From an uncultured Planctomycetia bacterium (GTDB lineage: Bacteria > Omnitrophota > Gorgyraeia > 2-02-FULL-51-18), in the NCBI GenBank assembly GCA_964497635.1, contig CAZCDB010000004.1, positions 1 to 43,574 on the forward strand: DNA of 43,574 nucleotides, read 5' to 3'. Every line of letters starts with the position of its first letter. Within the stretch, counting starts at the first letter, position 1. The notes under the pieces were generated by a model. The model ran no database searches. It saw only the letters and a program-made list of their open reading frames with translations, and was not told where the DNA came from. Positions 1 to 24,942 of the stretch are shown in pieces. The translations under genes were made by a program, and so were the position numbers.

Positions 1-3000
1 CCAACCGCGCGCCGCTGACAGACGCGTCTACAAGAGCGGTAAATCTTTCTTTTGTCATCTGCTCTGATGAAAGCCCATCGAGGGTTTCTACCTCATTTAG
101 AATCTTTTGAAGAATAGTCGCGGCGCCTTCTCCCGTAGACGATTGGATCAGATGTTTTGAAACAATCGCTCGGCGATCAGCCGCATCCAACACAGACGCC
201 ACAAAACGACCATCCCCGCTTTGAGCATCAGTCCCCAGAAAATCAACAGCGATGATAAAACTTCTCTTTGGACTCTCAATACCCAAAGACCGAGTAATCG
301 CTTGAGCCGTGCGGCGGCTGCCTAAACGCGCCTTAAGATCTGCCAATTGGGCTTGTATGGCAAGAACTGTCGGTCTTGGCACCACAGTCCCGGAATCTTT
401 AAGAGCTCCAAGAAGATCGTCGTTTGTGGGCCCCAAAAGTCCTTCCAATATATCGGAGACATCGGCAAATGCCTTTTGTTGAACACTCAAAGGTTTTGCG
501 CGGTCATAGGGCAAGGCTCTGGATTCTAAAATAGTAAGATACCCAAATTGCGCGGTCTCGTCTTTTTTAAGCTCGAACATCCCATCACGTTGGTAAGGAA
601 TCATTTTTTCTTCCCTCAAGTCCAACATGTACAAAGTGTATGGCGCCCGCGAAAACAAAACCTTTGAATCACCATTGGGCTGCTGCTCTGAAATAAATTG
701 TACGATTTGCACATAAATTTTCTGCTGGGTGGAATAAACAGTCACTAGCTTATCCTTATCCACTTGCGCGGTAAAAATGTAATCATCGCCATTCGGAGAC
801 GTTTCCCATTGCTCCAAAGGCAAGGAATCCAAAACCTTGACGCCATTGTTGCTCTTTTTTTGTAATGAAGCTAGCACGCCCTGATGATGACGAATAAAAC
901 CGAACGGCTCGGTAAATGGGATTCTGGAAGAATCAGGCGCTGTGGCTCGACCCAAATAAAAACCACCGCCTGCCAAAGCCAACCCTGTGGCCAAAAAGCC
1001 CCTTCGCTTTACTACCCCAGAAACGAGGCGTTCCTCAATGGACCGAGTATCCCTACTAGTTGTGCTAGATAGTCGTGCGGCCCCAAACCTGACCGCAAAA
1101 TATCCCTCATTGTTTATATTGTCGACCAACATCGTGGCTTGAGATTTAGGAGGCTCCAAGACCTTGGGTTTCAGCGAAGGAAAAATCGTGGCCCTTTGGA
1201 GAGCCGCCGTAATTTCAGGTTTGTTTGCGCCATTCAAAAGAATTACATTAAAACTTTGTGAGCCCATAGATAGGAATAAAATGGCCACAGGACTCTTCTT
1301 GTCCAAAAGCACTCGAGCTTTTAATCCTGAGGCAGGCACGCTAAAACCATTAATGTACCTAGAAACAAGCTCGCTAAAACTACTACGAGTGGGGATATCC
1401 TGCAGATCAATCGTCCGTACCAAAAAGGCTCGCGCTGAGGTTAAATCAGGATTTTGCAATTGACGCTGAGCAACCGTTTTAAAACTCAACCGCGCGCCGC
1501 TGATTTTTACAGTTCCGGTAATATTTTCAAATAGAAACTCAACTTCTTGGTTGGCGCTGTAGCCTCCGACGGATTTATTTAGGACCACTCTAAAATAAGT
1601 GGGCTTGCCGTCCGACTTATTTTTGCCAACAGCAGTTACCTGTCCTGAATAAGTTTCGCCTTGATAGTCGAAAGATATGATTCTGTCTGGCACCAATCCT
1701 TGCCGGACAATTCTGTCATTCTCTGCAATCTGATCAGGCTTGGGATCATCTCTGTCAGGCTCAGGTTGTGGCTGAACAGGCGGTATTGTCGGAGAGCTTC
1801 CGACCTTGCGCACCAGGATAGGCTCACCAAATACAATCTCCCTAAATTGGGCGCGTGCCCCGTTTGGATTCCGATCATTTACAACGGTAAAAGACCCCGA
1901 AGAAACAGACGCACCGACCGACTGAACTCCGGTAATCCGCCCTACAAACAGTCTTCTATCAGTGGTCCTATTATTAATGTAGTAGCCTGGCGCAAATGTA
2001 AACTGAACCTCCACATCGCTTTTTCCGACAGCTGATTGGATTAGCGCAACGACAGCTTCCAAGCGTTGAATTTGTGTATCTTGAGGCAATTTCTCTGTGT
2101 GCCCACCCACCACTTGAAGCACAAGGCCTCTATTTAGATTTGTATACGGATCGGGCACGATTTTTCCATGAACGATCTGTGAGCCGTATTTTACATTGAC
2201 CCACTGACCCTCAAGCTTCGCCAGATCCGACTCCGAGGCTGTGTAGTAAATTTTTGTTTCAGAGGTCGGGGGTGGCGGCGGATCCACAGGAGTGGGTTTT
2301 TTAAAATCCGGATTAGGGCTTCCCAAAAAGTCCGTTAATGTAAAAACATTTCCATTATTAAGCAAGCGCAGGGTTGTAGAGGTCATCGAAACCACTTGCC
2401 CGCTTGCAGAATAAGCCTTAAGAGCCTTCATCTGCTCTTCGGTTAAGCCGATAGGCCCTCCCAACAGTCTTCCAAGACCCGGTACAAAATTAAAGCTGGC
2501 AAACTTTCTGGAACCCAGAGGACCCACCGGCTGATAAGTCAAAATCATGCCACGACGGTTTTGGGCGAATCTTACGATACTAAAAATCGGAATAGTCACC
2601 TTGGTGATAGACCCATATTTCATGAGGGTGACATGATCGCGATCAAGCGCATGAAGAATGCCGTTGGTATAATAATATTTACCATCGGATGCCACCCAAA
2701 TCAATCCAAGAGTATTGGTCGTGTAGGGCTTTAGAGCCTGGAAATTTTCAAAAGTTGGCCTCGCAAAAGGTTGAGTCGTAACGACCGAAGTATCCGCTGC
2801 TTGCAACTCTTGAATCTGGACGTCCGCCTGAGCTCTTTCTCTGCTTAGAGTTTCCAGGGAATTGGCAATCACTCGGTCAAGGGGGATAAGCACAACCTGA
2901 TCCCCGGAGCTCTGTGTTCCCTGAAAAGTGTCACTGCTAAGATCAAAACGATCCACCCGCCCCACAAATGGACTCGCTATGCCACGCTTTTGATACTCTA

Positions 3001-6000
3001 GAACCACTTCGGTGCCCGTCTTCATAGCACCGACAAGTTCCTGTCTTAATTGATCCAAATTCAGCATCTGACGGGTAATCACATCGAAAGTGATCTTGAT
3101 TTTTGCGCCTTCCGAGGTTCTCAGCTGGATTGAATTTTGATCGACGGCCTCCACACGACCTTGAACTCTCTGCTCCTGCTTTTGTTTTTTGACGGTAACC
3201 GTCCGCCAAAGAACCAGCTCGGCCCCACTCTTTTTAAACAATTCAAAATTTTTCTGAGTCGGGTCCGCATACACCTGAGAAAGAAGCTCTTCATCAGTTC
3301 TATTGTTATCTTGCACAGTTAGCGCTTGGGTCTGAACACTCCGCTGACTCACAGGCTTTTCTTCTATCTCTCTTCCCGGATCCTGCCCAAATAAGCTAGC
3401 CCCAGACGTCACCGCCACTGCCGCTGCTGCAGCAGTAAAACTCCCACTCCAGCGACGAAGTCTATTGGATAAACCTTTCCCGAAAATACTCTCGAGTAAA
3501 ATTGTAAAATCGGATAGTTGAAAGTCATTCCCTTTCAACTTTGAACTTTCACCTTTCAACTCAGGATCCGCCAACCGTGCGGCGCTATCCGGAACCGTTT
3601 CCTTGGCACCCTTTGATTCTGGCTCCACCAAGCGCAAAGCCGCAATCGCATTGTCAATAGAGGCTTTGGCTCTCAGATAAATATCCGCAAGACCCTGCAC
3701 ATCTTCTCTTTGTTGTCCCCCAAGGCTCTGTGCAAATCCAGAAAGACCGACTTGGGTGATGGCGACTTCATTTTCTATGCGGGAAAGAATCCTGAAAGCA
3801 GAGCTATAAGCTTCAGTAGAAAATCCTGCAGAAAAAGACCTTGCACCAGCCTGAAGTCGCTCCAGATAACTACCGGTCAATTCATTTAGTGACGCCTGAG
3901 AACCATCGCTTGGCAAGGTATACCCTTGGCCTACTTCTTTGGAGGCTGTGAGCTCCTTTTGAGCTTCTACAAGGTGCCTATAAAAATCGTCCCTGGCAGT
4001 AAGCGCTTGTGCAGACGCCAACCGTGCGCCAGCCAAACCGTTGCCGTCTTGATTCATTGCCCAAGGCTTTCCCAACCGCCTTACATTCAGCCATTTAACG
4101 AGAGTCGCCAAAGGACGGCTATCAGTATATGCATGTAATTTAGTCTCAACGCTTTGAAGCGTTCCATCAGAGTTAATGGTTATCGTTAGATCATCGAACT
4201 CACTTCGACCAATCTGATAAGTAAGAACTTGGCCGACCGGTTCGTCCCTAAGATAAATTTCAATCTCTTCGTTTCCATAAAATTTAAAGTTTGCGCTTCT
4301 CACAACCCCTGATGCTGTATTGGATCCTTTTATCTCAAGGGGTACGATGCTGGAATTCATCAAAACAATAGTCCCCTTGTGCTCACCTTCGTTTCTCTGC
4401 AAATCAACTATCGGCTGGACATATCGAATCGATTCATCGCGGGGAAGCAAGGTATCCAATGTCCTCCGAAGTGTATCGGGCCCTTCTGCTGAGCCGGACA
4501 GATAGGTTATGGGCTGGGTCTTATCCAAAAAGCTTATGTTCAATGTCAATGTCCACATGACTCCCGTATCAGTCATTTCCGCGCCAACAGCGCGAACAGT
4601 CTCGTTGATCAGCTCTTCACGAGAAAGGGGTTTTGCCAACCGTGCGGCATGGGATACTCGCATCTCCACTGCTTCCTGCATTGCGACTGCCATGGCCAAG
4701 GAACTGCTGGCTCCCGCAAACATGGCTTGAGGCAAATTCTCAGTGCTTAAAGGCCTCCCCTCCACATCGGTAGGATTCAGCTGAACGTAAAATCGGACCT
4801 TGGGCTCGGTGCCAGAAGGTCTGGCGGTGACATAGTCATTGCCATCGATCCCTTTGGGACCAAAATAAAATCGGACACCCTCCTCAGGAAAAAAGTTTAA
4901 AAGACCCTCGGGATTATCACGCCACCGTGGCTCGTTTAACAATGCTTTCAAATCTTCATAATACTTATCGACCGGAAAATGCTCCGAAAACTCAGGGTCC
5001 GTATTCTTCTGATCAACTGGGATCATAACTTGGACACCGGTAACTTTTTTCTTAACTACTTCGCCATTTTCAAGCACATCTAAAAATATTTCACGCCCTT
5101 TAGCAAAATCCCTGGCCATTTCCAAAATAGCTTTGATCCACGTGTATTTTTCGATGGTCCCTGCCGGGCCATTATCAAAAGTTTTGGGTTGATTGGTATC
5201 CGGAAAAAGTCCTATCTCCTGCTCAAGATACATGTCTTTAACCAGATATTCATGCAGTGTCATGCCCTTTTCCTTGGCATAGGCGAGTACTTCCAAAAGA
5301 AGGAAGGAGGCCATCGGACCGTCTTTGTCCAGCGTATGACCCATATTGCCCATTTGGTGAGGAATGAAACCAAAAGTGGGATCCCCATGCGCCGAACCAG
5401 GCGTTTCCACGGCCAAGCTCCTTAAAGGAGTCCAAAACTCGTCGTGGGACGCGGTGCGTTTTGCGGCATAGGCCCTGGAAAGCTTGAATCCGCCATCGGC
5501 TCTTTCCAAAACCCCTTCCTCTGATAAAAACTCAAGGGTATCTCTGAGCGATTGTGCGGAGTAATGATAATATTTTGCGACCTCCGTGGTCAAAAGACCG
5601 CTGACTTTGTTGTTGGCAACGATTTGATCTCCTGAAATCCTCAGGTTAAGCCCGTCGATCTTTTGAAACTGACTCATGATCAGGTAAAACGGCGGCGGCG
5701 CTCCCATATAACTAAATCCGCCGCTTTCCTCAGCCATAGACAAAACCACTTTCCCTTCTTCCCAGGCTCGCTTGCCTTTCTCGGCAAGCAGTGAAAATCC
5801 GACATAGGTGTTATCGATTTCCACTTGAACGCCTCTTTTTTTCCCATAATTTACCAAAGCTTTTAAGGCATCCGTAGTGACATGGCTTTTGATGATCACG
5901 AAAGGCGTGTCTTTCTCTATCGATCCAGCGGCTATTTTTTCGGCAAAACGGTCTATGCGGTATTTTGTGATCAAAGTCCATTTATCATTGGCGGACAATA

Positions 6001-9000
6001 AGCGCAGACCGCTAAAGCCCAGGCGCTTTGCCGCTTCTGGATCCCCAGCCGCATATGAAATAAGAAGCGCCCGCCGCTGAGCCTCCTCTTTAGGCAAAAA
6101 TTCTTCCGGTATGGGCACGCTCGCTCCGGCACGATCCGCATCAGGATCCGTTCCTATCTGAACGTCTATGCCTCCGAGAGCTTCGACAGGATCATTGTTT
6201 GTATCCTGAATATGCTGCTGGATTGCCATCTCGACAGCGTCCGCGTTTCCCTTTGAACTGCCTGGATCCGGGATCTGGGGGTTGCCTTCTGCGTCCAGCT
6301 GATTGGAAAAGATGGGAAACCGTCCGTCCATCCGGGCTACTTCCTTCGCGATCTTGACATTCTCATCTTTAAAACCCAATTCTTTCAAAACTCGAGTGAA
6401 TACCCGTAGACCAACCCCATAAAAAGGCATGTATAAAAGCTTGATATTGGGTGCCTGGCGACGAACCAGATCTAGATCCGCAAATTGGTTGAGAACGTGC
6501 TTCACATAAATGGAAATAATATCTATTTGGGCAGGGGTCTTGGCGTCTCCGGCATTATTTTTTTCTCCCAGAATAGTCACCTGTCTGGGGCTGCCCTCAG
6601 AAAATTGCCTCACCAAGGGTCCGCGATAAATATTTTGTTTTAACGTCTCCGGGGTATATGCGTCGGATTCAACTTGCGCAGAAGCACTGAGCACCTCTTC
6701 AATATCATTCAGTTCCACGGGAGGGACATAATCTTTCGCACCCACAGCCCCTTTCCCATAAGTGTGTTCAATGACCCCATTACGCTCATTAGGACCTAGC
6801 TGAGCGCCGTCCCCTCCAAAAACCTTAAAACCTCCGTACCGGTAATCATTGTGAGAAGCGCTCAGAAGTATCCCCACGTGCGACTTCACGTAAGCGGCAC
6901 CAAAAGAAAGGACCGGTGTCGGGGAGGCTTGGTCAAAAAGATAGACATTAAAACCATTTCGGATGAATACAGCCGCAACAGCATCAGCAAACGCCGGATT
7001 TTGAATACGGCTGTCATAAGCCAGCGTCATCACGGGAGGCCGCCCTTGTTTTTCAGCGACCTTCTTGTAGTAACGGGCCGTGCCTTCCGCCAGCCTCATA
7101 AAAGTAATGCTGTTGATGGTCTTCGGCCCTTTCAGGATTTCAGCTTGAAATCCTTTTTCTAGCAACTCATTGGCTTCTTCCATATTAAAAACAGTGAACT
7201 GCCTAGGGCCGGCCGTTCCAAAAACCACCTTACTGCTGTGAGCGGCGGTGATATGGCCAAAACGTTGTTGAGCGAGAGCCTTCAACAGACCTAACTTCGT
7301 GTATTTGTCAATAGCAGGGCTCTGAAGCCAGTCCATCACGCTTTTGACGGTAACACTCACAATGCTATCACTAAGTTTCTTTCCCTTTCTTTTTTCATCT
7401 TCAACATATTTGCCAACACCAACCTGCAAGCGAGTCCGAATCCTCTTTTGTTGATTGTCGATAAGTCCATTCAACCTCTGTTCGGAGATAAAAGAATTTA
7501 TATTTTTTCCAAGAAGGTAATAAGATGCCAACCGCGCGCCGGTAGGATCCTCTTTGGAGAGCCGTGCGGCCGCCAAAATAAATTGCTCACCACGTACAAC
7601 ACCAGCTTGATTGGCTAAATTTTCAACCGCCTCGGGACGAAGAGCCAAAGCAAGAGCCCTCTGCCCATCCACTCCGGCCTTCAAAGCGCGGCCTTGCACC
7701 GTTTGCACTATTTTGATTTGTTTGGCGAGGGGTGAAAGAAGCACTTTTTCATACTTGGCTTGATTGGTCTCGGAGGTGACATTGGGGGCCACCACCACAT
7801 ACGAATAACCCTTTTCCCTTAAGAGCTTGGCCAAATGACGGGTGTGGTAGCCGCCGGCGATAAGAGCAGCTATTTTTTTGTTCTTCATCACCTTCTCTAC
7901 ATTTTTTATAAAAGCAAAATCTCGCTCATCCACCACCCGATAAAACTTCTCAAGTACCTGGCGGCCTTCTTCGAGATGCCTTTCAAGCGGGATAAAGCTC
8001 TCCGTCAATCCTTCATCAAAAAGAGCTTTATTTAGGAGAGCTTGCCAAGAAATGGTGGGAAAATCGGGGGTATTTTCTAAAAAAGAAGCAAATTCATCTG
8101 AGGTCATCTGGATCCGATAGGCGGTCTCAAGAAGTGAGAGGTAGCGATCTACGGCGTGCAAAGTGTGCGCCTGGGTATGATCCAAGAGTTGGGTATAAAC
8201 CATCTGCTCAAGCTTCTTGGACTCTTCTAAAAGCTTCTCCATATCAAGCTTTGAAAACTTTTCAAGATAGACAAAATAATTTTGAAATTGCGGAGTTGCT
8301 GAAAGACTTAAACCGTGTGCTTTGGCAGCCTCCGCGATCTTTTTAAAATAAGCCAGCTGTCCCACTCCCTTTTGCTTGGGCTGGAGAGCCAATTCCTTGG
8401 CAAGATTCCCAGAGTCTTTGGCACCGACTTTTTCAACCAAAGAAGCAAGCTCAAGCTGAGCTAGGGAGAAATCAATTTTTTTCTCTTCGGCCAAAAGAGC
8501 GGAGAGCCTTGTGATTTCTTTAAAATCAGAAAATTCGATCCCCTGCCCCTGAGCCAACTGAGCCAGTTTTTCAGGCGAGCTGATGCGCCCGGACGCTTTT
8601 TCATAAGCAAGTAAAGCGTGGGGATAATGTCTTTTTTTAAGCTGTTCGACGGCCGCTCGTGAGCTGACTAAATAATTCAAAATAGTTTCGCGCTTCTGCG
8701 CCAAATCCGCATAGGCCAGAAGACCCTTTGAATACAGATCGAGATCTTCAATGCCGGTAAGCTTCATGTCTCGTGAGGAGGTAAGATTGAGATACTCTTC
8801 TCCCGAGATCTGGGCTTCACGTAGAAAGCGCCCAGCGACTCGTTTGATAACAGAGGCGTCCGCAAGCTCTCTTAAGGGAGTCAGGGTGACATCCCCCTCA
8901 CCACCCTCCACAAACACGTCGGAAAACTGATAACGATCCATCAAGGCATCCAGCGTCTTGGCCAGATTTTCCTGCCCCGAAAGATTGGCGTGCGCGTCCT

Positions 9001-9265: not shown

Positions 9266-9298
9266 TTCCTCGCCCTCTCTCTTTTTCTTCTTAAGTTT

Positions 9299-12200
9299 TT
9301 AAGCCGCGATGTCCAGAGCTCGCATCATGCGCTCAAGACGTAGCGCTTGCTCAAGCGTCACACGTACCAGAGGCACAGCCCAAGCCTGAATCCATCCTTG
9401 GGCGTTTTGGACTTCACCGCTTAAAAACGCGATGATGGCCGGGCGGGCATCTCCGGTATCAACACCCACAGGGAAGAAAGAAACGTGCTGGGCAACAAAT
9501 GCCGCCGAGGGATCCTTGGGATTTTGTAAAGATGCTGTTAGGGTGTGGAAAATATCTCGGGTGTAAATGCTGGTCGCCTCTCCATCTTCGGTGAAGGCTT
9601 TGAACGGCAAGTACCCTTTGCCCTGCACAAGGCTGGAGAGATTTGCGGTGGATGCCATATTAAATTCTTCGGCCACCCGTCCGGTTGTGGGATCTACCAC
9701 CTTCTCATCCATCCCCACGACAACATTTTTTGAAGATAAAATGTTCAAAAACACTTGGACCGTTTTATCCGCAAGCAATTCTCTGCCGATCTCGACGCGA
9801 AAGCGGAAATTGGAAACATCTTTCGCGTTTGAGATCTGAAGAAGCGCAAACAACTGACCCACCAACAACTGCTTCTGGCGCTCCAAAGACTGGACTTGCC
9901 CCACGCGATCAGCAATTCGAATCACACGAAGCGCGTTGGTCTTGAGAACCGCTGTCTCTTCTAAGGTGGCATCAAAGAGCCCAGCAGCTGCCTGGATCTG
10001 AGCCTGGCTTCTTTGGGAAACCTGTGTTAAGGCTTCGGTGTCCTGATCCTTCTCATCCACTGCCTTTTGGTCCCTGTCTGTCGGGGCGTACAAAAGCTCA
10101 GCTCCATCCGTACCACCCACAAACACATTGCCCCTACCATCAGGCCTGGCCGATACGGAAAAGTCTCTCGTCCCCGATGCCAAAGCAATGGCCGCACTTG
10201 GCAACCCGCTTTGCGCAATGGCGGTCAAAACAGCTCCATTACCAGCAAGAGTCAAAAATGGTTGTACAGACACCCTTCCAACAGGGGCTGGTAAAGTAGC
10301 GTTGGCCGCAAATCTAATACCCGTCGGCTTCGTCGATGACTCAAAACGCTTTGCAGCTGATGGAGACGCCAAGCGTGCCGCAGCAATGGCGGCTTGCACA
10401 GTGTCAATGGTGCTCTTTTCAGCAACCCTAAAAGCCTCTGCCCCATCTTTTAAAAGCCTATCTCCAACCGCATCGATTGAAGTGTTGTTGGGACCTAAAA
10501 CCAGCTCGTTCAAATCCAAAAGCACCTGATCCGCGGTAATCGTGTCCTCACTATCCAGCTCACGGCCATCTCGCAGCAGAATCTGGCGCCAGACATCGTG
10601 ATTGTCAGCGGTTTGAATAAGCTTTGGTAGACCCTTGCGGACCAACTGCTTGTCCGCTACATTTTGCAGTTGCTCATCCGACTGAGATTCTACGTAAAGC
10701 GCCGTCGCTTCAAATGCATCTTGGGGAAGCGTGTTGAGATTTCTATCACCCAAAAGAGGCAATACGTAGCTCAAAGGATCGGCGTAGGGCTGTTTATCTT
10801 TCTTGGTGCCGCTTGAAGCGATCAGAAGTCTCTGTGGATTGGCACCTTGCAAACGAAGCGCGCTAAAACGTCCGCGGAGATCCTCGATTTTTTCAAGAGT
10901 CGCCGGATCCAAAAGACCCGGTTGAAGAGCAAGGTTTTCGTTTGAATAAATGGACTGAATCACGCGGTAAGCCAGCTGAGTTTGCGCAATCGCCACTTTG
11001 CCACGAAGCATGCTGATTCTCTCCTTTATTTCTGGCGTGCTAGCATCTCCCTCTGCTTTTAGGATCAGAGGATCCACAGCGATATCCACCCGGCTCACAA
11101 AAAGCGAAAGCACGGAATGAATATTGGCTAGAGGATTGCCATCCACATTTCGATTTTCAAGACCTTGGATATAAGCTTCAATGTTGTCTAGAACATGCTG
11201 GGCCGTAAAAAGCAACGTCACATTGACGCTGATCCCCTCACGAGTTGCAAGCTCAACAGCCTGGACCCCAACCTTACGGTCTGCGTCAACAACATTTCCG
11301 ATCTTAACGTAACCAAATACGCCATTGGCTCTAAAATTCTCATGAATGGTGCGTGCCTCCGCCAAGAGCTCTTGAGGATCCAGGGTATTTGGCGAGGTTT
11401 CATGTGAAGCTCGGCCTTTGTTGACTCTTAAAAGCTGGGCAGCTTGAACAGCCACTTTGGCGTACAAGGCCAAATAAATATCGCGAGCGCTATTGCCAGC
11501 TGCTTTGCCAGTCATCGCCTGTTGATAGATTTCAGATTTTGGATCTGAAATATACTTTTTGATCACCGCATCAATAAGACTTTGATTGGTCGTAATATCT
11601 TGAGCACCCAACTCTTCAATAAAAATTCGGACATAATCCTGCCACGAAAGATTGGGGTCTCTAAGACGCTCCTGAAGAAGCTGGTTTAGCTGCGGGCTGT
11701 TGATCTTAGAGGGTACGCCATCCAGAACAAAGGCATCATGATGAAGGCCGTTGGACTGAAGCCGTGTCAGCCTCAAAACAGAAGTTTTCGGAAGATCTTT
11801 TGCTGGAATAAATATGCGCGGCGTCCAAAAGAAGCCATTCTGGTCAAGCTCTTCAAACGCAGCCTCTGCCGCAGCCTCCGCAAACGAAGCAGAAGACGTT
11901 TTTAATTTAAAACTGATGTAGCTCTGAGGAGTCAATTCCCCATTCTGAGCTTGGGCCAAAAGCTTGGGCTCTAAGATCACATTTTCATAAATAACTTGAG
12001 CATTCGGACTAAGGGCCAAGCGTGCCGCAACAGCTTGAGTTATTTCCTTCTTGATCTGTCTTATTTCTTTGACAGGAACCCCAAGAACCGTCCAGAACTT
12101 TTTGTTCTGTACAGCTTCTTCCAGCTGCTGATAGTTGTGATAAACAATCCCGTCTCGACCTAGATTTGAAAGGATCCACGCCAAAGAAATAATCCGGGCT

Positions 12201-15200
12201 TTTTCTTCGGGGGATTTATCAGGCGCCAGAACTTTATCAATGCTGGATAACTCGTTGATCGTTTGTACATCGGTACCCACTGGATGAAATATTTTGCTGG
12301 CAGTGATAAATAGGGGGTTTTCACCGGGGACATCCAAAAGATAAGAAGCCTGCCTTTGGGCTTTGATGACCGCTTCTATATTTTCGAATTTTTTTCCTTC
12401 CCACTGGGAGGTTAACTGCTTAACAATAATCACTCTTAAGGACTCCTTGGGATCTGATTGAGTGACTGCATTTAAGATATCCACAAAAGGAACTTTGTAA
12501 GCATCCAACCATGTACCGCGACCAGAAAAAGATCCTGTGGCTCCCTTGATATTCTTAGCAAAAAGCTGGAAGCGGCGAGCAATCGTGCCTGGATTTCCAC
12601 CACTTAGCATGAACATCAGACGTTTGCCAACAAGGTCATTAAATATTTTAAGCCACTTTATTTGGAGTTTTTCATCCGCAATGTCGCTTCCGGGAAAATG
12701 CTCTTTATCGATATCGGCATCAATGCCAAGTCTGCGAATCGCTTGGATCATCTTGAGCGTGTTGTTGTAAGCCCATTCACGACCCTCAAAGGTTTCGAGG
12801 TATTTTTGACCATTAAGGGTTGGAACAGCATTGACAGCATCAAGATTGATTTCAGTGGATCCATCTGCCGCATAGCGACGGGTCTTAGCATGAAGCACTT
12901 CAGGGGTGACAAGAAAACCATTTTGATGGCCGATTTTAACGATATCTTTAACCGTTGTAAAAACAGGCTCAAGCCTCTCATCTGGCACAGAAGAATCCAA
13001 GTACACCATGATCTTGAGAGCTTTTATCTGCTGGATATGAGAAATGGCTTTTAAGAAATCATCCAGAGTTTTAAAACCAAGATCCTCGTGAAGAGTGCGA
13101 GGAGCGTTCCCAATCTCACGACCGGCCTCAGGCGCGCCATCCTTTAGGGCACCGTTGGGGGTTTTGCCGGATTCTAACTGAATAAAAAATTGGGAATCAG
13201 CGAACACAGGAAGATCTGGGTGAAGAATGATTGGCCCATACTCAGCCTCGGTAATCGCTCCCGCTTTTTGAGCGGCAATAATATCTGGGTGGCTGAGCGA
13301 AAGAAAAACATTATTTTTCACATAACCCATCATATTCTTCGGACTCACAAGAATCGCATGGTTATAGTCGGATATACCAGTAAACAAGCTGAGCTGGAGC
13401 TGCGGCTCGGTCAAACCAGAGCTTTTAAGCATCTCCCCTAGAAAATAAACAGCTCCCTGGTCGCCAGGGGTTACATTGCGATGACCCTCGGGCATCAAGC
13501 TCACGAGAGCTTTCCGCCGACCCTCACCAATCTGCTTCCACCAATCGGCGCCCTCGACATAAGGCCCATCGATGTGATCAAAAGGCTGACGTGCGAGACG
13601 AGCCGCAACAGTCGGAGCATAACTGCTTCTGGAAATATTCATACCGCGGCTATTCACAACAAGCGTTGAGACGTTGAGGCTGCCATTCAGCGATTCAACA
13701 CCGTTATCCGGAACAACTTGACCTTGTTCCGTTTTAAAAGTATTGGAAGAAGGAATGATGAAAGTCTGATAAAAATCAGCCGGAGGGACACTTTCAAGTG
13801 TAAATATTTTTTCTCCACTTTGAATGGCCTGGATATCCGCTTCACTGAAATAAGGTTGCTGGGTGGTCGGGTTGATGCGTGAACGAAGGGCTTCTAGATC
13901 TTCCGCTGAAAAAGCGAGTCGGTTATCCATATCTGTACTTGTCCGAGTGGACGAAGTTTTGACATAAACACCACTGCCCGCGGCTGTCTCCTTAACACCA
14001 TAGAAGCCTTGGTCTGAAACAATCTGTGCCACGCCTTTTGCGCCGCTCGAGGCTAGATTTCCTGCCGCTTGAAATGCGCTCATCGTCTCGGTGGCACCAG
14101 CAATTTGGCCGTAAACATGGCGGTCGTCAATAGCCGCGATCAACTGCGGAGTAATGGACCCTGATCCATACGTCGGCACCTTGACTCCCAAAGCGATCAG
14201 CTTTTTATACAACCGCTGATGCCGATGAGGTTTGGATCCATCCACAAGCTCTTTGCCCATGAGCTCAAAAGTGATCTCACTTAGAGGGATATTCGTTGCC
14301 GCAGAATGTGCTTTGAGCCAATCAATAACAGCATCTTCAAGAGAAAGCTTCCCGTCTCTTCCTACCTCAGCGGCATTGCGAGCAACTTTTGAAAAATCAA
14401 AAGTAACCGACCCTTTATAGACCAAAGCAAATGTTCGCAAAGTATCCGGAATAGGGATTATTTCTTTTGCGACCAAAATAACAGAGGTACCACGCCCTTC
14501 ATTTTTTGCAGGGTTTGTGGGATCAAAATTGGCCGTATTATTGGTGCCATCCAGCCCATCATTGCTGATCATGTAGGTAGCCGTGGACTTGCCGCTCACA
14601 GGCTCAAACCTTTCACCCTGTTCAATATAATAAGATCTTGGGTCTCCAACAAAATCAGCAACATCTTTCAACCCTTCAGAGTTGACCGCTACAAACGTGA
14701 CCTGAAACTGATCCGCGAGTCTTTGAAGACCTTCACGATGAATCCGTACCGCCAGCAAATCAAGAGTGTTTTTATCACCCTTTCCAATAAGACCGGACAA
14801 GTGAATCGCCAAGGCTGTTTCTTCTGTGATCTGACGCAGAGAAAATGGGATAAGATCCGCTGACTTAGGCGTTAGATTTGTAGCCAGACTATATTCGCTT
14901 GAACCAAGAGCAGGTGTTACCATCTGTCGCGCTCTTGCAATAATTTCATCAAAATCACTGGTCGTCCCAGGCTTGATAGCCGCAGGAACCACCGATCTAT
15001 TCCCTGGGGTCACCTGCAATGTTGGTGATGGCTCCCTTCCATCAATGAATGGGCTGGTATAATCGTTGGATCTCAGCGGAGATAACGTTCTAGGCAAACC
15101 GCTTGGAGCATTTTCTGGAGCAAAACGCTCTGGATCTTGCTCTGGATCTTCATCCGCCAACCTCGCCGCTGCAACTGATTTATCTACCAATCCCGCGACA

Positions 15201-16867
15201 GCCAACGAAAGTTTTGGGTTTCCGGCTTCCTCTACAAATCTTTGGGGAATCCGGTATGCTCCCGAAAACGTTCTCTGCCCGTCTATTCCGGCAATCAGGG
15301 CTTTTCCGTTAACCGTTCGCACGGTTTTGATGGGGCGCTTCAGAGGAGATAAAAGCACTTTCTCATATTTGGCCTGGTTGGTTTCAGAATTGACGTTGGG
15401 TGTGACCACGACATACGAATACCCTTTTTCTTTCAAAAGTTTTGCCAAGTGACGCGTATGATAACCGCCGGCGATGAGGGCGGCCATTTTAGAGCTCATC
15501 CCTTTTTCCAAATTTTTGATAAAAGCAAAATCTCTTTGATCCACCGCGCGATAAAATTTTTCGAGGGCAATACGACCTTCCTCAAGGTGTTTCTCAAGAG
15601 GGATCAAGCTATCGGTCAGGCCCTCTTCCAAAAGCGAGCGATTTAAAAAAGCTTGCCATGAAACGGTAGGAAAATCAGGAGTGTTCTCAAGAAAAGCAGT
15701 GAACTCATCCGACGTCATCTGAATGCGATAGGCTGTCTCTAAAAGACTCAAATATTGGTCAACCGCACGAAGCGTATGTGCAGCCTCATGAGTGAGAAGA
15801 CGCCCATAAACCACCTGCTCAAGTTTCTGGGACTGCTCAAGTAACTTCTCCATATCAAGCTTCGAAAACTTTTCCAAATAGGCCATGTAGCTCTGAAGCT
15901 TGGGTGTCGATGAAAGCGCGATATTCCGCTCTTTTGCCTGGGTAACGATTTTTTTAAGATACGCAAGCTGACCCACTCCCTTTTGCTTGGGCCCCATGGA
16001 CAATTCACGGGCAACATTTCCCGCGTCTGCAGCGCCAATCTTCTCCACTAGCGAAGCAAGCTCCAACTGCGCGAGGCTAAAATCAATCTTTTTTTCTTCG
16101 GTCAAAAGGACCGAAAGCCCGACAACTTCTTTAAACTGAGAAAAGCCCACGCCTTGTTTTTGCGCCACATCGACAAGTTTTTCGGGGGAGACGGTTCTGT
16201 TGGCCGACTTTTCATAAGATAACAAGGTGTATGGGTAGTGTCTTTTTTTAAGTTTTTCAACCGCCGTACGGGAGCTAGACAAATAATCAAGAATTTTTTC
16301 CCGCTGGTTGGCCAACTCAGCGTAGGCCTTTAAACCCTCCATGTACAAATCAAGATCCTCAACCCCTATCAACTTCATCGGCTGGGAAGACGTCAGATTG
16401 AGATATTCTTCCCCGGAAATTTCGGCATCACGTAAGTAACGGCCTGCGATACGTTTCATGGAAGAAGCGCTCATCAGCTCACGCAGAGGCCCCAAAGTCA
16501 CATCCCCACTTCCACCCTCGACAAAAACATCGGAGAACTGGTATCGATTCATCAGTTCTTCAAGAGTCTTGGCAAGATTCTCTTGTCCCGAAAGATTGGC
16601 ATGCGCATCCTGGATCAAAATCACAAGGGGTGCCGGGCTTCCGTTTTTTAGCGGGGCCTGGTAGCTTTCTTTATATTGACTGTACTGTGTCGGGACTTGA
16701 AAAGAAGACACATCGACAAAAGAAGAGGCTTTTGAAGACACCACGGGATTGGAAATTCCTGCGAGAGTGGCGGCCTGAGCTAAGTCAGAGACTGAAAAAG
16801 TAACGAGGAGTGCGAAGCTTAAAGACTTCACGATGGAGGAGGGACAAGACTTGTTTGATAGTTTCAT
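9299..16867 (-). CDS. Giant multidomain exported/membrane-associated protein 'B': N-terminal domain, then GlpX-like, LacD-aldolase-like and transaldolase-like modules, then a C-terminal domain
   Basis: Supplied ORF 9299..16879 (2526 aa). The track start at 16879 is a TTG. The ATG at 16865-16867 (MKLSNKS...) has GGAG 6 nt upstream, so I prefer it. The N-terminus ...SLSFALLVTFSVSDLAQA|A is signal-like. Confidence 0.9.
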   Translation of the reverse strand: MKLSNKSCPSSIVKSLSFALLVTFSVSDLAQAATLAGISNPVVSSKASSFVDVSSFQVPTQYSQYKESYQAPLKNGSPAPLVILIQDAHANLSGQENLAKTLEELMNRYQFSDVFVEGGSGDVTLGPLRELMSASSMKRIAGRYLRDAEISGEEYLNLTSSQPMKLIGVEDLDLYMEGLKAYAELANQREKILDYLSSSRTAVEKLKKRHYPYTLLSYEKSANRTVSPEKLVDVAQKQGVGFSQFKEVVGLSVLLTEEKKIDFSLAQLELASLVEKIGAADAGNVARELSMGPKQKGVGQLAYLKKIVTQAKERNIALSSTPKLQSYMAYLEKFSKLDMEKLLEQSQKLEQVVYGRLLTHEAAHTLRAVDQYLSLLETAYRIQMTSDEFTAFLENTPDFPTVSWQAFLNRSLLEEGLTDSLIPLEKHLEEGRIALEKFYRAVDQRDFAFIKNLEKGMSSKMAALIAGGYHTRHLAKLLKEKGYSYVVVTPNVNSETNQAKYEKVLLSPLKRPIKTVRTVNGKALIAGIDGQRTFSGAYRIPQRFVEEAGNPKLSLAVAGLVDKSVAAARLADEDPEQDPERFAPENAPSGLPRTLSPLRSNDYTSPFIDGREPSPTLQVTPGNRSVVPAAIKPGTTSDFDEIIARARQMVTPALGSSEYSLATNLTPKSADLIPFSLRQITEETALAIHLSGLIGKGDKNTLDLLAVRIHREGLQRLADQFQVTFVAVNSEGLKDVADFVGDPRSYYIEQGERFEPVSGKSTATYMISNDGLDGTNNTANFDPTNPAKNEGRGTSVILVAKEIIPIPDTLRTFALVYKGSVTFDFSKVARNAAEVGRDGKLSLEDAVIDWLKAHSAATNIPLSEITFELMGKELVDGSKPHRHQRLYKKLIALGVKVPTYGSGSITPQLIAAIDDRHVYGQIAGATETMSAFQAAGNLASSGAKGVAQIVSDQGFYGVKETAAGSGVYVKTSSTRTSTDMDNRLAFSAEDLEALRSRINPTTQQPYFSEADIQAIQSGEKIFTLESVPPADFYQTFIIPSSNTFKTEQGQVVPDNGVESLNGSLNVSTLVVNSRGMNISRSSYAPTVAARLARQPFDHIDGPYVEGADWWKQIGEGRRKALVSLMPEGHRNVTPGDQGAVYFLGEMLKSSGLTEPQLQLSLFTGISDYNHAILVSPKNMMGYVKNNVFLSLSHPDIIAAQKAGAITEAEYGPIILHPDLPVFADSQFFIQLESGKTPNGALKDGAPEAGREIGNAPRTLHEDLGFKTLDDFLKAISHIQQIKALKIMVYLDSSVPDERLEPVFTTVKDIVKIGHQNGFLVTPEVLHAKTRRYAADGSTEINLDAVNAVPTLNGQKYLETFEGREWAYNNTLKMIQAIRRLGIDADIDKEHFPGSDIADEKLQIKWLKIFNDLVGKRLMFMLSGGNPGTIARRFQLFAKNIKGATGSFSGRGTWLDAYKVPFVDILNAVTQSDPKESLRVIIVKQLTSQWEGKKFENIEAVIKAQRQASYLLDVPGENPLFITASKIFHPVGTDVQTINELSSIDKVLAPDKSPEEKARIISLAWILSNLGRDGIVYHNYQQLEEAVQNKKFWTVLGVPVKEIRQIKKEITQAVAARLALSPNAQVIYENVILEPKLLAQAQNGELTPQSYISFKLKTSSASFAEAAAEAAFEELDQNGFFWTPRIFIPAKDLPKTSVLRLTRLQSNGLHHDAFVLDGVPSKINSPQLNQLLQERLRDPNLSWQDYVRIFIEELGAQDITTNQSLIDAVIKKYISDPKSEIYQQAMTGKAAGNSARDIYLALYAKVAVQAAQLLRVNKGRASHETSPNTLDPQELLAEARTIHENFRANGVFGYVKIGNVVDADRKVGVQAVELATREGISVNVTLLFTAQHVLDNIEAYIQGLENRNVDGNPLANIHSVLSLFVSRVDIAVDPLILKAEGDASTPEIKERISMLRGKVAIAQTQLAYRVIQSIYSNENLALQPGLLDPATLEKIEDLRGRFSALRLQGANPQRLLIASSGTKKDKQPYADPLSYVLPLLGDRNLNTLPQDAFEATALYVESQSDEQLQNVADKQLVRKGLPKLIQTADNHDVWRQILLRDGRELDSEDTITADQVLLDLNELVLGPNNTSIDAVGDRLLKDGAEAFRVAEKSTIDTVQAAIAAARLASPSAAKRFESSTKPTGIRFAANATLPAPVGRVSVQPFLTLAGNGAVLTAIAQSGLPSAAIALASGTRDFSVSARPDGRGNVFVGGTDGAELLYAPTDRDQKAVDEKDQDTEALTQVSQRSQAQIQAAAGLFDATLEETAVLKTNALRVIRIADRVGQVQSLERQKQLLVGQLFALLQISNAKDVSNFRFRVEIGRELLADKTVQVFLNILSSKNVVVGMDEKVVDPTTGRVAEEFNMASTANLSSLVQGKGYLPFKAFTEDGEATSIYTRDIFHTLTASLQNPKDPSAAFVAQHVSFFPVGVDTGDARPAIIAFLSGEVQNAQGWIQAWAVPLVRVTLEQALRLERMMRALDIAA
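10367..10381 (-). other. [AG]ARL[AS] boundary motif, copy B4 (AARLA)
   Basis: gcg gca cgc ttg gcg (residues 2167-2171). Context AAIAAARLASPS, directly after the transaldolase-like module. Confidence 0.8.
10400..11512 (-). other. Type-2 (long) transaldolase-like module inside ORF B
   Basis: GRASHETSP, GYVKIG (Schiff-base Lys context), EGISVNVTLLFTAQ, HSVLSLFVSRVD, RGKVAIAQTQLAY, GANPQRLLIASSGTK, PYADPLSYV and NLNTLP appear in the same order as in actinobacterial-type transaldolases (recalled from memory). Confidence 0.8.
12014..12028 (-). other. [AG]ARL[AS] boundary motif, copy B3 (AARLA)
   Basis: gcg gca cgc ttg gcc (residues 1618-1622). Context TQAVAARLALSP. Confidence 0.8.
12320..13072 (-). 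other. Class I (LacD/tagatose-bisphosphate-type) aldolase-like TIM-barrel module inside ORF B
   Basis: By-eye match to LacD segments. ALKIMVYLD matches AVKFLLYYD. GFLVTPEVL matches PFFLEVLTY. IDADIDKEHFP matches VDVLKVEVP (Lys). LMFMLSGGNPGTIARRFQLFAKNIKGATGSFSGRGTW matches [37 protein letters not shown]. Confidence 0.55.
13592..13606 (-). other. [AG]ARL[AS] boundary motif, copy B2 (AARLA)
   Basis: gcg gct cgt ctc gca (residues 1092-1096). Context APTVAARLARQP, directly after the GlpX-like module. Confidence 0.8.
13616..14830 (-). other. Class II fructose/sedoheptulose-bisphosphatase (GlpX)-like module inside ORF B, with insertions
   Basis: TEETALAIHLSGLIGKGDKNTLDLLAV matches GlpX ESAALAGYKWLGRGDKNTADGAAV. 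ISNDGLDGT matches AVDPIEGT. KPHRHQRLYKKLIALGVKV matches KPRHDAVIAEMQQLGVRV. YGQIAGATET matches YGIGGAPEG. STLVVNSRGMNISR matches TETLLIRGKSRTIRR. Confidence 0.65.
15155..15169 (-). other. [AG]ARL[AS] boundary motif, copy B1 (AARLA)
   Basis: gcg gcg agg ttg gcg (residues 571-575). Context KSVAAARLADED, at the end of the N-terminal domain. Confidence 0.8.
15272..16708 (-). repeat. Paralogous N-terminal domain, copy in ORF B (partner 7661..9097)
   Basis: See the partner entry. The order is the same and there are very few indels. Confidence 0.9.
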
Positions 16868-16960
16868 TAGAATCTCCAATTTAATGCAGGTTTACAATGA
16901 AAGATAGTGGAATTGTACATGAGGCTTCCTCACAAAACAAGAGCAGAAAAGTTAAAAATT

Positions 16961-17563
16961 TTACTTTTTTTTAAAAAATAAGATTATCTTTTTTTTAGCT
17001 TTACTAAGCGCTTTTGAGCGATGGCTAATTTTATTTTTCAAGTCTTGTGACATTTCGGCAAAAGTTTTTTTACTGCCTGACGGAACAAAAACTGGATCAT
17101 ACCCAAAACCATGTTCGCCCCGAGGCTCGGTGGCAATATGTCCGTGGCATTCCCCTCTCACACAAGCCACAAATTTTCCACGATCGTAGAGCGCCATACA
17201 AGAAACAAACTTCGCCTTACGCGAAATACCCGGCTTCTTAGCCAAAAGATTTAAAAGTTTTTTGTTGTTGTCCTGATAGCTGCAGTCCTCCCCCGCAAAC
17301 CGTGCCGAATAAACCCCCGGCTTGCCGTTGAGTGCGTGAACCATAAGTCCCGTGTCATCCGCTAGTACAACACTTTGGGTAAAAAGAGAATAGGCTCGTG
17401 CCTTTTTGCGAGCGTTGGCTTCCAAAGTCTTGCCATCCTCCACCGCCTCAGGACAACCCGGAAACTCCGCCAGAGACCGTACGCAAATCTTGCTTGCCTT
17501 TAACAAGGCTGAGATTTCGCGTAGCTTGCCTTTATTGTGCGTGCCCAGAACAAGTTCCTTCAT
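16961..17563 (-). CDS. rdgB: Non-canonical purine NTP pyrophosphatase (RdgB/HAM1 family)
   Basis: 200 aa. Carries THNKGKLREI, VLADDTGL, GKPGVYSARFAG, EPRGEHGFGYDPVF and KNKISHRSKA, which are typical family motifs. Confidence 0.9.
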   Translation of the reverse strand: MKELVLGTHNKGKLREISALLKASKICVRSLAEFPGCPEAVEDGKTLEANARKKARAYSLFTQSVVLADDTGLMVHALNGKPGVYSARFAGEDCSYQDNNKKLLNLLAKKPGISRKAKFVSCMALYDRGKFVACVRGECHGHIATEPRGEHGFGYDPVFVPSGSKKTFAEMSQDLKNKISHRSKALSKAKKKIILFFKKK

Positions 17564-17669
17564 CCCGCTCTCCTAGATTTTGTGCCATAGCATGGGGACC
17601 TGACAAACCCCTTTTTTTGGTAGTATACGAAACGAAGGCCTCTGAAACAACAGTCAGATCATGCCGCGT

Positions 17670-19073
17670 TTAAACCTTCACATCCCAAAGCGGTATCTTA
17701 AGATGCTGTCTAAAATTCTCACCTTTCAGTGGCTGCATCTTCCTCTGAGAAAAATCCCCTCTCTGGCCCAAATGCTGGCGATGCTGCCTCAAGACATCGC
17801 TTGAGGCAAGATGAAGCGTGTGTTTGCCATACATGGCCGCGGCCTCATCAATGGTTTTTGAAATCTCGCGCAATCCTGTGATTTTGACAGGATCATCAAA
17901 TAAATCTCTTTGGACTTCTAGCCCATACTCAAGGTCATGAAACCACACACCTGTCGCTCTGTACTTTGTCCCAGATTGAAAAAGTGAATCAAAAAGCTTG
18001 GAGACAATCTCAACCCCCTCAAGAGGCGAGTCTGTATGCCGCTTAAGCTCTGCAAAAAGACCCTGGCCTCGATAATCCTGATTTTTAAGATAGACTCCTA
18101 TCCCTTTGGTGCGCAGATGGTGGCGTCTTAGCTTAATAAACGCCGACTCCATATTGCGTATCAGCTGAGCCCTTACAAAATCCCGATCGCTGGAGGCGGG
18201 TGTAAACGTCTTGGTTTTACTCAAAGACGCCTGCGCCTCTTTCTTTTCTGTAAGAATCGGATAAATAGCTTCCCCTCGCAGCTCATGCCAAAGCTCAGAG
18301 CCAATCTTACCCAAGAGTTTTCTTGCAAAAGCTTCCGGCTTTTGAACATATTCCCAAACTGTATGAACGCCGTGCTTGGCCAAAAGTGCCGTACTGGCTG
18401 GCCCAAAACCACAGACACGCTCAACGGGGACCGTCTTAAGATAATCTCCTAGTTCATACCCTCTCACGCAAGTAAACCCCGATGGCTTGCCGTCTTTAGA
18501 GCAGATCTTGGCGAGCGCTTTGGTAAGGCTAAGGCCAACGGACACGGTGATCCCCAGCTCCTTTTCAATTGTATTTTTGATATCAAAAGCAATGGCTTCG
18601 TAAGAGCTATGATAAACACGCCGCAAACCCGTAAGAGACGCAAACGCTTCATCGATGGAGTATTCTTCTACCTCAGGAGTAAAGCGTCTTAAGATCGCAT
18701 AAAATCTCTGAGAAAATAAGCTATAGGACTCATAGTCGCAGGGCAAAAAAACGGCCTCTGGGCAAATTTTTTTGATCTCAGACAATCGCATGGCCCGCAC
18801 CACGCCTGCGCGCTTGGCTTCATAACTAAAAGCCGCTGCGATACCTCGATCCTTTCCCACAATCACAGGCTTTCCTTTAAGGGCTGGCTTGAGAGACTGC
18901 TCTACGCTAGCAAAAAAAGCATCACAATCGACATGAATAATTGCTTTTGGAAGAGAGTGGAGACTGATCAAAGATTGACTATTTGTATTTTCGGACAACG
19001 GCGACAATGACTCCTCCGATTTTAAGCTCTTCTTTGGGTTTGATCGGGGCGTATTTCTTATTGGCGGCAACAA
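17670..19073 (-). CDS. Y-family (DinB/UmuC-type) translesion DNA polymerase; 5' end unresolved
   Basis: IIHVDCDAFFASVEQ and SIDEAF motifs. The maximal ORF starts at a TTG at 19073 and overlaps lexA by 95 nt. An in-frame TTG at 18969-18971 lies just after the lexA stop. There is no in-frame ATG before the catalytic core. Confidence 0.85.
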   Translation of the reverse strand: MLPPIRNTPRSNPKKSLKSEESLSPLSENTNSQSLISLHSLPKAIIHVDCDAFFASVEQSLKPALKGKPVIVGKDRGIAAAFSYEAKRAGVVRAMRLSEIKKICPEAVFLPCDYESYSLFSQRFYAILRRFTPEVEEYSIDEAFASLTGLRRVYHSSYEAIAFDIKNTIEKELGITVSVGLSLTKALAKICSKDGKPSGFTCVRGYELGDYLKTVPVERVCGFGPASTALLAKHGVHTVWEYVQKPEAFARKLLGKIGSELWHELRGEAIYPILTEKKEAQASLSKTKTFTPASSDRDFVRAQLIRNMESAFIKLRRHHLRTKGIGVYLKNQDYRGQGLFAELKRHTDSPLEGVEIVSKLFDSLFQSGTKYRATGVWFHDLEYGLEVQRDLFDDPVKITGLREISKTIDEAAAMYGKHTLHLASSDVLRQHRQHLGQRGDFSQRKMQPLKGENFRQHLKIPLWDVKV

Positions 19074-24924: not shown

Positions 24925-24942
24925 ATTGACCCTCCCCCTGAA

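Follow-up and report, generated by a model that had tools for sequence, protein, structure and literature searches.

Paired giant genes of an Omnitrophota bacterium as candidate exported polyproteins marked by a repeated junction pentapeptide

I analyzed a stretch of 43,574 nucleotides from an uncultured bacterium that GTDB places in the Omnitrophota phylum (contig CAZCDB010000004.1 of GenBank assembly GCA_964497635.1; the whole stretch is called the window below). Two giant open reading frames (ORFs), designated ORF A and ORF B, lie next to each other on the minus strand at the beginning of the window, and it was found that a recurring pentapeptide divides them into protein-sized modules. The ORF listing and the translation give ORF B as an open frame from 9299 to 16879 with 2526 codons counted from a TTG codon. 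Its likeliest start is the ATG codon at 16867, which has a GGAG sequence 8 nt upstream and leads to a protein of 2522 residues and a stop codon (9299-16867), consisting of a putative signal peptide, a head domain, three cargo modules, and a tail. The frame of ORF A is open from 9298 down to 2 and has no stop codon within the window. ORF A starts at the ATG codon at 9265, behind a purine-rich ribosome-binding site and 33 nt past the stop codon of ORF B, and the first 3088 residues are encoded before it leaves the window (2-9265). On a 44,357-nt sister contig in ENA, the gene calls give 3433 residues for A, with its own stop codon, and the same 2522 residues for B. A cluster look-up placed B on both the 43,574-nt and the 44,357-nt contigs, in ENA and NCBI (P0023, P0168, and P0169), and the full-length A on the longer contig (P0170); the flanking rdgB gene is present on six contigs. 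The GC content is even over the A/B region. A and B are an operon pair in an Omnitrophota genome. Thus, the two adjacent, co-directional giant ORFs described in an initial annotation, which had been made from the letters alone, were confirmed. The same annotation had noted that the supplied ORF track misses A. The only cause is that A runs off the window; on the longer contig, A is called normally.

The tripeptide ARL occurs four times in B and nine times in A, where about 1.4-1.6 occurrences are expected. Twelve of the 13 triplets stand at module boundaries, each within a match to the consensus [G/A]-A-R-L-[A/S], the twelfth being split by the window edge. The thirteenth (KARLG, residues 2978-2982 of A) is off the consensus and lies inside the seventh module of A. 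In B, the mark is AARLA at all four junctions, at residues 567-571 (15155-15169), 1088-1092 (13592-13606), 1614-1618 (12014-12028), and 2163-2167 (10367-10381). In A, it takes the form of AARLS at residues 566-570 (7556-7570), GARLA at 576-580 (7526-7540), AARLA at 1540-1544 (4634-4648), GARLA at 1746-1750 (4016-4030), AARLA at 1895-1899 (3569-3583), GARLS at 2590-2594 (1484-1498), and AARLS at 2729-2733 (1067-1081), all on the minus strand. The GARL(A) at residues 3085-3088 (2-13) is the one split by the window edge, and a 345-residue tail follows it on the sister contig. The marks divide B into segments of 570, 521, 526, 549, and 356 residues and A into segments of 579, 964, 206, 149, 695, 139, and 356 residues, with 345 more residues beyond the window.

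Is this mark common in related proteins? In 82 ORFs of related loci, GARLA was seen 120 times and GARMA 35 times, where 0.5 and 0.1 occurrences are expected, respectively. A logo of 260 sites of the general form [G/A]-A-R-[L/M]-[A/S] has x-[S/A]-G/A-A-R-L/M-A/S as its only conserved part, the flanks being unconserved, and the median spacing from mark to mark over these sites is 294 residues, which is the size of an ordinary protein. The density of marks per 1000 residues is 1.2-1.4 in ORFs longer than 1200 residues and 0.011 in ORFs shorter than 500 residues of the same loci; the mark is enriched about 100-fold over ordinary ORFs. Likewise, 146 cluster representatives from the exhaustive hidden Markov model (HMM) search described below have 1.28 marks per 1000 residues, with the first mark at a median position of 599, just past the head domain. 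Five proteins have 10 recognised Pfam domains between them, and none of these domains has a mark inside it (P = 3.5e-4 if marks were placed at random); segments bracketed by marks have whole-protein size, such as 274 residues for a methyltransferase and 280 residues for a histidine phosphatase. Hydrophobicity dips at the marks. In the one stretch that was modelled, about 50 residues ahead of the first mark of B (residues 513-566), the AlphaFold model is disordered.

Both proteins open with a signal-peptide-like segment, residues 1-32 of B (16772-16867; MKLSNKSCPSSIVKSLSFALLVTFSVSDLAQA, with A after the putative cleavage site) and residues 1-35 of A (9161-9265; ending in FLSSDILHA, likewise with A after the site). 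These two N-termini had been singled out as signal-like, and their form agrees with the sequences and with the N-termini of the family. A hydrophobic 11-mer is present in 128 of 132 complete family N-termini, and K or R precedes it in 123 of the 132. The common form is a basic n-region, a hydrophobic core of 11-15 residues, and usually a small-x-small site. Judged by sequence, these N-termini look like Sec signal peptides. A hydropathy scan of A and B found no further strong transmembrane segment beyond the N-terminal one.

The head domain follows at residues 33-512 of B (15332-16771) and at residues 36-520 of A (7706-9160), the latter being a paralogue with 69% identity to the former. The shared N-terminal region extends over residues 15-574 of A and 12-575 of B (568 columns); the paralogous domain reported earlier is therefore real, while its size of about 480 residues was understated. 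A head profile was built from 19 sequences and used for an exhaustive HMM search of protein clusters at 50% identity. It matched 9,822 cluster representatives at E<=1e-3, of which 6,627 reach E<=1e-30. Among the best 150 matches listed, the head domain is N-terminal, on proteins of about 470 to 7364 residues. GTDB genomes contain at least 570 head-domain loci, several per genome and seven or more in one metagenome-assembled genome (MAG). Omnitrophota/Omnitrophica MAGs account for nearly all of the named homologues and for most of the related loci, and many of the others have records titled 'uncultured Planctomycetia'.

Some loci encode the head in an ORF of its own, which lies immediately upstream of a motif-rich giant ORF; this arrangement speaks for a functional connection of the head with the cargo. 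In L022, L027, L034, and L052, the separate head ORF has 547-1426 residues, and the motif-rich giant ORF follows directly or overlaps in another frame; the giant ORF of L052 (6713-15787) has 15 marks. These four could also be split genes, frameshifts, or sequencing errors. About 10 related loci form one syntenic subgroup in which the family member and the nuo operon (NADH:quinone oxidoreductase) are divergently oriented neighbours. In the public gene call P0019, the first ~220 residues of a head are fused to NuoC/D, which is probably a chimeric call or assembly.

The AlphaFold model of the B head has a predicted local distance difference test (pLDDT) score of 82, with residues 55-510 folded and residues 513-566 disordered. 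Strands and helices alternate at residues 63-170 and 461-490, which are split by a helical bundle of about 280 residues. The residues invariant in the 19 sequences are D87, H89, N91, Q95, E117, E153, E154, R445, and H470; the A head has D90, H92, E120, and H474. The TIKI superfamily of hydrolases and proteases has a parallel-sheet core and a site of two His and two Glu residues, namely E3900, H3902, E3930, and H4030 in RRSP, with H85 and E113 in Bcr135 (PMC6254334). The head, with its predicted core of alternating strands and helices, shares with this superfamily (Tiki, TraB/PrgY, GumN, ChaN, erythromycin esterases, and RRSP) an Asp/Glu-x-His motif (D-x-H in the head), a distal His, and a His-to-Glu spacing of 28 as in RRSP H3902/E3930 and Bcr135 H85/E113. 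It differs by the ~280-residue helical bundle inserted in the fold. PF04187 matched two of the 19 members below the threshold (best E 0.007), and PF01963 (TraB_PrgY_gumN) matched head constructs lacking the insert at E 0.12, also below the threshold; these are the sole Pfam matches there. A Foldseek comparison of the head model with PDB gave no significant match, the best relevant entries being 3b55 (probability 0.25) and 6xcs (0.15) with E>0.2, and the alignments are dominated by the helical insert.

At the other end, the tail of B covers residues 2167-2522 (9302-10369) and ends in RMMRALDIAA, and the full-length A ends in RTRMASLDIAA. The terminal 356 residues of B and 345 residues of A align end to end with 27% identity (E 5e-15). 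In relatives, the length past the last mark falls into two groups, 4-17 residues and about 240-450 residues. Twenty of 42 tails form one BLAST family, and about 40 long relatives end in the ~345-residue domain that a profile of these 20 recognises. The B tail matches this family profile weakly in hhalign (E 4e-4), aligned up to the exact C-termini. The profile has no relative in Pfam or PDB. An [AS]A end is found in 89 of 124 long relatives, in contrast to eight of 409 control ORFs and none of 34 short head-only proteins. The C-terminal consensus is L-[RKQ]-A-[VI]-G-x-[AS]-A-COOH, and an AR[LM]-like element is enriched 10-fold at 8-15 residues before the C-terminus.

Between head and tail lie the cargo modules. 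Module 2 of B (residues 571-1091; 13595-15157) has a Pro/Ser-rich linker followed by a GlpX-like fold of class II FBPase with a visible DGLDGT motif. The support for the proposed GlpX-type bisphosphatase is weaker: the module alone matches PF03320 (FBPase_glpX) at E 8e-6, but its 25.4 bits stay under the gathering score of 27, and it has no sequence match in PDB; against TIGR00330 it scores 18.6, with a cut-off of 259. Module 3 (residues 1092-1617; 12017-13594), which had been taken for a LacD-type aldolase, is an orphan. Nothing was found for it in Pfam, NCBIfam, a phmmer search of PDB, or a search of 5.8 billion proteins, and its single-sequence AlphaFold model is unusable (pLDDT 36); short local stretches such as GRGTW may resemble LacD. 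Module 4 (residues 1618-2166; 10370-12016) is a type-2 transaldolase, as had been predicted, with an N-terminal extension of about 110 residues. TAL_FSA (PF00923) matches residues 1750-2065 of B at E 4.5e-24 (85.7 bits against a gathering score of 27) and NF002881 matches the module at E 4.5e-41; every NCBIfam transaldolase model matches it, each under its equivalog cut-off. In the alignment with PDB 3r5e (E 8e-18), the Schiff-base Lys (VKIG) and the Glu (SHETSP) are kept, and the WLD Asp faces an Asn in a poorly aligned stretch of low confidence.

In A, module 2 (residues 580-1543; 4637-7528) is an alpha-D-phosphohexomutase, and its 964 residues are due to long insertions. PGM_PMM_I (PF02878) matches residues 715-834 at E 4.9e-24 and exceeds the gathering score, which the matches of domains II and IV do not reach; domain III was not detected by Pfam. 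The phosphohexomutase-like module with all four family signatures was borne out, since the SASHND, DPDADR, EESGG, and RPSGTEP loops are all in the translation. An alignment with PDB 1tuo has the phosphoserine, metal, and phosphate loops (three of four) in place, and the EESGG sugar loop was read from the translation. Thus, the HMM check of both translations recovered the transaldolase and the phosphoglucomutase above the gathering score. The other modules of A are orphans: module 3 (residues 1544-1749; 4019-4636) has no Pfam match, module 4 (1750-1898; 3572-4018) has no significant Pfam match, module 5 (1899-2593; 1487-3571) has faint YolD and SH3-like matches only, module 6 (2594-2732; 1070-1486) is an orphan by Pfam search, and module 7 (2733-3088; 2-1069), with a Tat-signal-like start (KRRGFLATGLALAGGG), gave an empty homologue search. 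Module 5 has an RR pair and an Ala-rich hydrophobic stretch near its start, followed by repeated small beta-rich units. Twin-arginine motifs with Ala/Gly-rich hydrophobic stretches occur inside ORF A at 20-35 residues past two marks. The sequences KRRGFLATGLALAGGGFYLGRA (residues 2753-2775; 941-1009, minus strand) and RLRRWSGSFTAAAAAVAVTSGASLFG (near residues 1935-1960; about 3380-3470, minus strand) each resemble a Tat signal at what would be a new N-terminus after cleavage. Hydrophobic or transmembrane segments lie within 50 residues after 14 of 53 marks; by a rough estimate this is not clearly above chance, and it was dropped as evidence.

Confident Pfam matches were obtained in only about 12 of 108 inter-mark segments of the family, and the remainder are mostly orphans. 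The cargo of relatives includes DnaJ, CsrA, HTH, HATPase_c, Pkinase, PP2C, FHA, RelA_SpoT, HD, ABC1, and LOG, and further His_Phos_1, M48, methyltransferases, and HEAT, which are proteins normally working inside the cytoplasm. The cargo modules of the window are not shared with relatives, because a BLAST search against 80 related loci gave no match outside the head domain; partners were later found only for the B tail (P0044) and the transaldolase module (P0131). Cargo is almost never common to paralogues or relatives. The architecture itself, a signal peptide, a head, marked junctions, variable cargo, and a tail, is common to A, B, and thousands of Omnitrophota proteins.

These observations fit best with the view that A and B are members of a single family, very large and without a name so far, of pre-pro-polyproteins that are exported and cut at the marks, to which I give a probability of about one half. 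The chain would be exported by the Sec system and then processed, and a cut at or beside each mark would release the individual proteins outside the cytoplasm. The prime suspect for the protease would be the head domain acting in cis. Alternatively, a protease that reads C-termini may do the cutting; it is considered because a cut between Ala and Arg leaves ...[G/A]A-COOH, which resembles the natural ...[AS]A-COOH end. As a more speculative step, the released proteins might act in or on a host or prey cell with a logic like that of MARTX toxins, because the cargo of relatives is of the cytoplasmic type and Seymour et al. (2023) argued for a predatory or parasitic lifestyle in most of Omnitrophota. 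The initial annotation was largely right about the anatomy, and of its three readings, the processed polyprotein is now favoured, with the mark at the junctions, the protease-like head, and the conserved tail as new support for a cleavage that I infer. Its second reading, a surface or injected array of effectors, agrees with the signal peptide seen throughout the family and with the cytoplasmic type of the cargo, and stays conjectural. The third, enzyme folds recruited as binding scaffolds, is weakened for the phosphohexomutase, whose catalytic loops are intact, and may hold for the transaldolase, in which one catalytic Asp appears to be replaced. Its claim of an undescribed phenomenon was too strong, as discussed below. 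A wider proposal, that of a phylum-wide Omnitrophota polyprotein system with its own cleavage code, a TIKI-like processing protease, interchangeable cargo, a dedicated tail, and possibly effectors that reprogram a host or prey, is quite possible but should be held tentatively.

Several points speak against the polyprotein reading. The mark is absent in 28 of 107 relatives longer than 1500 residues, as scanned with [GAS]AR[LM][ASG]; these lineages may have a different junction mark, or not every family member is cut. The mark-less members include P0025, P0031, P0053, P0055, P0060, P0063, P0070, and P0076, and most of these examples still end in [AS]A. The signal peptides were assessed by eye and hydropathy. 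The first acidic residue of the head motif is Asp, not Glu as in the TIKI superfamily, and the assignment of the head is weak, consisting of the motif, the spacing, and the sub-threshold matches. Since all of the supporting matches are sub-threshold, the head is called TIKI-like here and is at most a putative member. The neighbourhoods of the related loci have no conserved protease or secretion gene. Sugar-phosphate enzymes have no obvious substrate outside the cytoplasm. Finally, the codon bias at the mark, described below, leaves room for a signal at the nucleic-acid level.

An uncut giant exoprotein or surface scaffold is an unlikely alternative but the one that survives best. Here, GAR[L/M]A would be a linker peptide for docking or recognition, with a partner such as a chaperone, a secretion component, or HEAT/TPR proteins, and the whole chain would act as one tethered multi-enzyme. 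Omnitrophota giants have been described as expressed coat or surface proteins (PMC10066038), HEAT repeats are common among the cargo, and the 28 long relatives lacking the mark have the same architecture. On the other hand, the mark is short and invariant with unconserved flanks, and disorder is predicted for the single pre-junction stretch that was modelled. The spacing of the marks corresponds to whole-protein sizes with strict avoidance of domains, the mark also stands directly before the tail domain, and thousands of clusters retain a protease-like domain in the same chain.

It seems improbable that the chain stays in the cytoplasm or is tethered to the inner membrane, the N-terminal segment being only an anchor, as a polyprotein or metabolon that serves the central metabolism of the cell itself. 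Sugar phosphates are required by the enzymes and ATP, GTP, RNA, or DNA by other cargo, and the catalytic loops of the phosphohexomutase are intact. A 2026 preprint (10.64898/2026.06.07.730766) favours the cytoplasmic face for giants that have transmembrane helices and no signal peptide. In most members of the present family, however, K or R precedes the hydrophobic core and a small-x-small site follows it, which predicts an N-in orientation with the bulk of the chain outside, and neither A nor B has another strong transmembrane segment. Characterised TIKI relatives (Tiki, TraB/PrgY, and ChaN) act outside the cytoplasm. Moreover, the modules are highly divergent, rich in orphans, and not conserved between paralogues, unlike housekeeping enzymes.

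The mark might instead work mainly at the DNA level, as a junction or microhomology of about 15 nt (GGC GCG CGG CTG GCG) that is a remnant of, or a substrate for, a cassette-like recombination shuffling modules between giant genes, with no role for the peptide. I regard this as quite improbable, although the module content is almost wholly different between paralogues and relatives and the codons at the mark are strongly biased to GGC GCG CGG CTG/TTG GCG (CGG 57% against a background of 22%; CTG/TTG 77% against 41%). GARLA sites use each of the six Arg codons and each of the six Leu codons, and paralogous sites of A and B differ synonymously (CGG CTC and AGG TTG) with the same peptide. Thus, selection acts on the peptide. 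The alternation of Leu and Met is a chemical equivalence, not a nucleotide one, and the related AR[LM] element is enriched in the C-terminal tail. The bias could come from translational pausing, microhomology for module exchange, or a recent common origin, and the mark may have a secondary role at the nucleotide level, for instance in slowing translation or in shuffling modules through microhomology. An internal translation start at the L/M codon was also considered and rejected, since 23% of the Leu codons at GARLA sites are not NTG and no Shine-Dalgarno-like sequence precedes the site.

An artefact of assembly or annotation (a chimeric contig or lost stop codons) is very hard to credit: the sequence does come from a metagenome assembly and ORF A does extend to the contig edge, but the sister contig carries both genes with A terminated by its own stop codon, B recurs on contigs of two lengths in ENA and NCBI, the GC content is even, and thousands of relatives have the same architecture.

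Other genes of the window were inspected as well. An SOS-type trio (16961-19560, minus strand) shares the strand of the giant genes and is located immediately upstream of them, encoding LexA (Peptidase_S24), the Y-family polymerase dinB (IMS), and RdgB/Ham1; no functional link of the trio to A or B is evident. The GC content goes down to 0.39-0.43 at about 24-28 kb. This low-GC dip (24184-27767, minus strand) includes an 849-residue protein with at least four S1 RNA-binding domains after an N-terminal hydrophobic stretch and a 246-residue ORF that reads like a truncated Y1/REP-type transposase and has no Pfam match; it may be an acquired island. A 552-residue protein (36088-37746, minus strand) has an N-terminal hydrophobic segment and a Peptidase_S74 domain at residues 441-494 (E 6e-13), and adjoins a GGDEF diguanylate cyclase (35096-36091). 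In phage tail spikes, the Peptidase_S74 domain acts as an intramolecular chaperone and cleaves itself, and this protein is a candidate for another self-processing surface protein in the same genome. At the window end lies an rRNA operon on the minus strand, with the 5S gene at 42354-42470 and the 3′ 970 nt of the 23S gene at 42598-43574, cut by the edge. No tRNA gene was found in the whole window.

If the cleavage is real, it would represent a new mode of bacterial gene expression, comparable to viral polyproteins but cellular, and used on a large scale, in 9,822 clusters (50% identity). The junction peptide allows giant ORFs to be split in silico for structure prediction and proteomic data to be searched for neo-termini. 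The genes of the family are unnamed in the searched collection or are labelled by whichever single domain an HMM finds. The kinases, phosphatases, (p)ppGpp-type synthetases, and sugar-phosphate enzymes among the family cargo are of the kinds seen in effector arsenals.

How do A and B compare with known systems? The gingipain and HagA proteins of Porphyromonas have a Sec signal and a conserved C-terminal domain and are cut at Arg or Lys into domains after export. The A/B family shares with them, and with type IX cargo, an N-terminal Sec-type signal and a conserved C-terminal domain on a large multi-domain exoprotein. The C-terminal domain of the type IX secretion system is about 80 residues long, whereas the tail of A and B has about 350 residues without a known fold and occurs in another phylum, and no type IX secretion genes were seen. 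In viral polyproteins (picornavirus and coronavirus, 3C/3CL), several proteins are encoded in one ORF, and short repeated sites are read by a protease of the same chain. A and B differ from these as cellular chromosomal genes whose product looks exported, in a family with thousands of cargo combinations and without homology to viral proteases.

MARTX toxins (RtxA of Vibrio) are likewise secreted proteins of multiple thousands of residues, in which conserved ends enclose a modular, shuffled array of effectors. A built-in protease frees the effectors by cutting after Leu in the linkers between domains (PMC5218395), and the MARTX effector RRSP is a TIKI-family endopeptidase (PMC6254334). In contrast, the RTX repeats and the C80 cysteine protease of MARTX were not found in A and B by Pfam, and MARTX has a C-terminal type I signal in place of the N-terminal Sec-type signal. 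The mark of the A/B family is a fixed pentapeptide, its candidate protease is N-terminal, and its presumed targets are microbes rather than animal cells.

The nearest system is that of the Omnitrophota giants ('Archaeovorins'). It had been stated in the initial annotation that no described family strings such enzymes together, which is out of date. West-Roberts et al. (2023; 10.1101/2023.11.21.568195) reported domains of TPI, GPI, FBPase, PGM/PMM, and FBP aldolase in those regions of Omnitrophota giants that are predicted to be extracellular, and the 2026 preprint described giants with a 'multi-enzyme metabolic cluster', PGM Pfams, and frequent signal peptides. Since both preprints report them, sugar-phosphate enzymes in a giant exported ORF are a described trait of the phylum. 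Term searches of the two texts turned up nothing on the head, the pentapeptide at the junctions, or the tail, and a literature search for the pentapeptide and for Omnitrophota polyproteins gave nothing relevant. The giants studied so far have genes longer than 90 kb or proteins of at least 10,000 residues and are four to forty times longer than A (3433 residues) and B (2522 residues). They have many transmembrane helices, an N-terminal C39/S8 peptidase, and SecA-like domains, whereas A and B have only the N-terminal hydrophobic segment and no such Pfam matches. A and B share with the giants the phylum and the presence of unrelated enzymes in one ORF (FBPase, PGM/PMM, and aldolase-type in the giants), and their transaldolase, phosphohexomutase, and GlpX-like modules are concatenated sugar-phosphate enzymes of the same kind. 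Frequent signal peptides, mostly unannotated sequence, and a suspected post-translational cleavage are also common to the giants and the A/B family. West-Roberts et al. suspected cleavage and stated that the cleavage points are unknown, and the published work leaves it undecided whether these multi-enzyme giants are cut at all. The fixed junction peptide provides concrete candidates for these cut points, and if the present reading is true, the code of the marks would be the cleavage map that these authors call lacking for the giants of the phylum.

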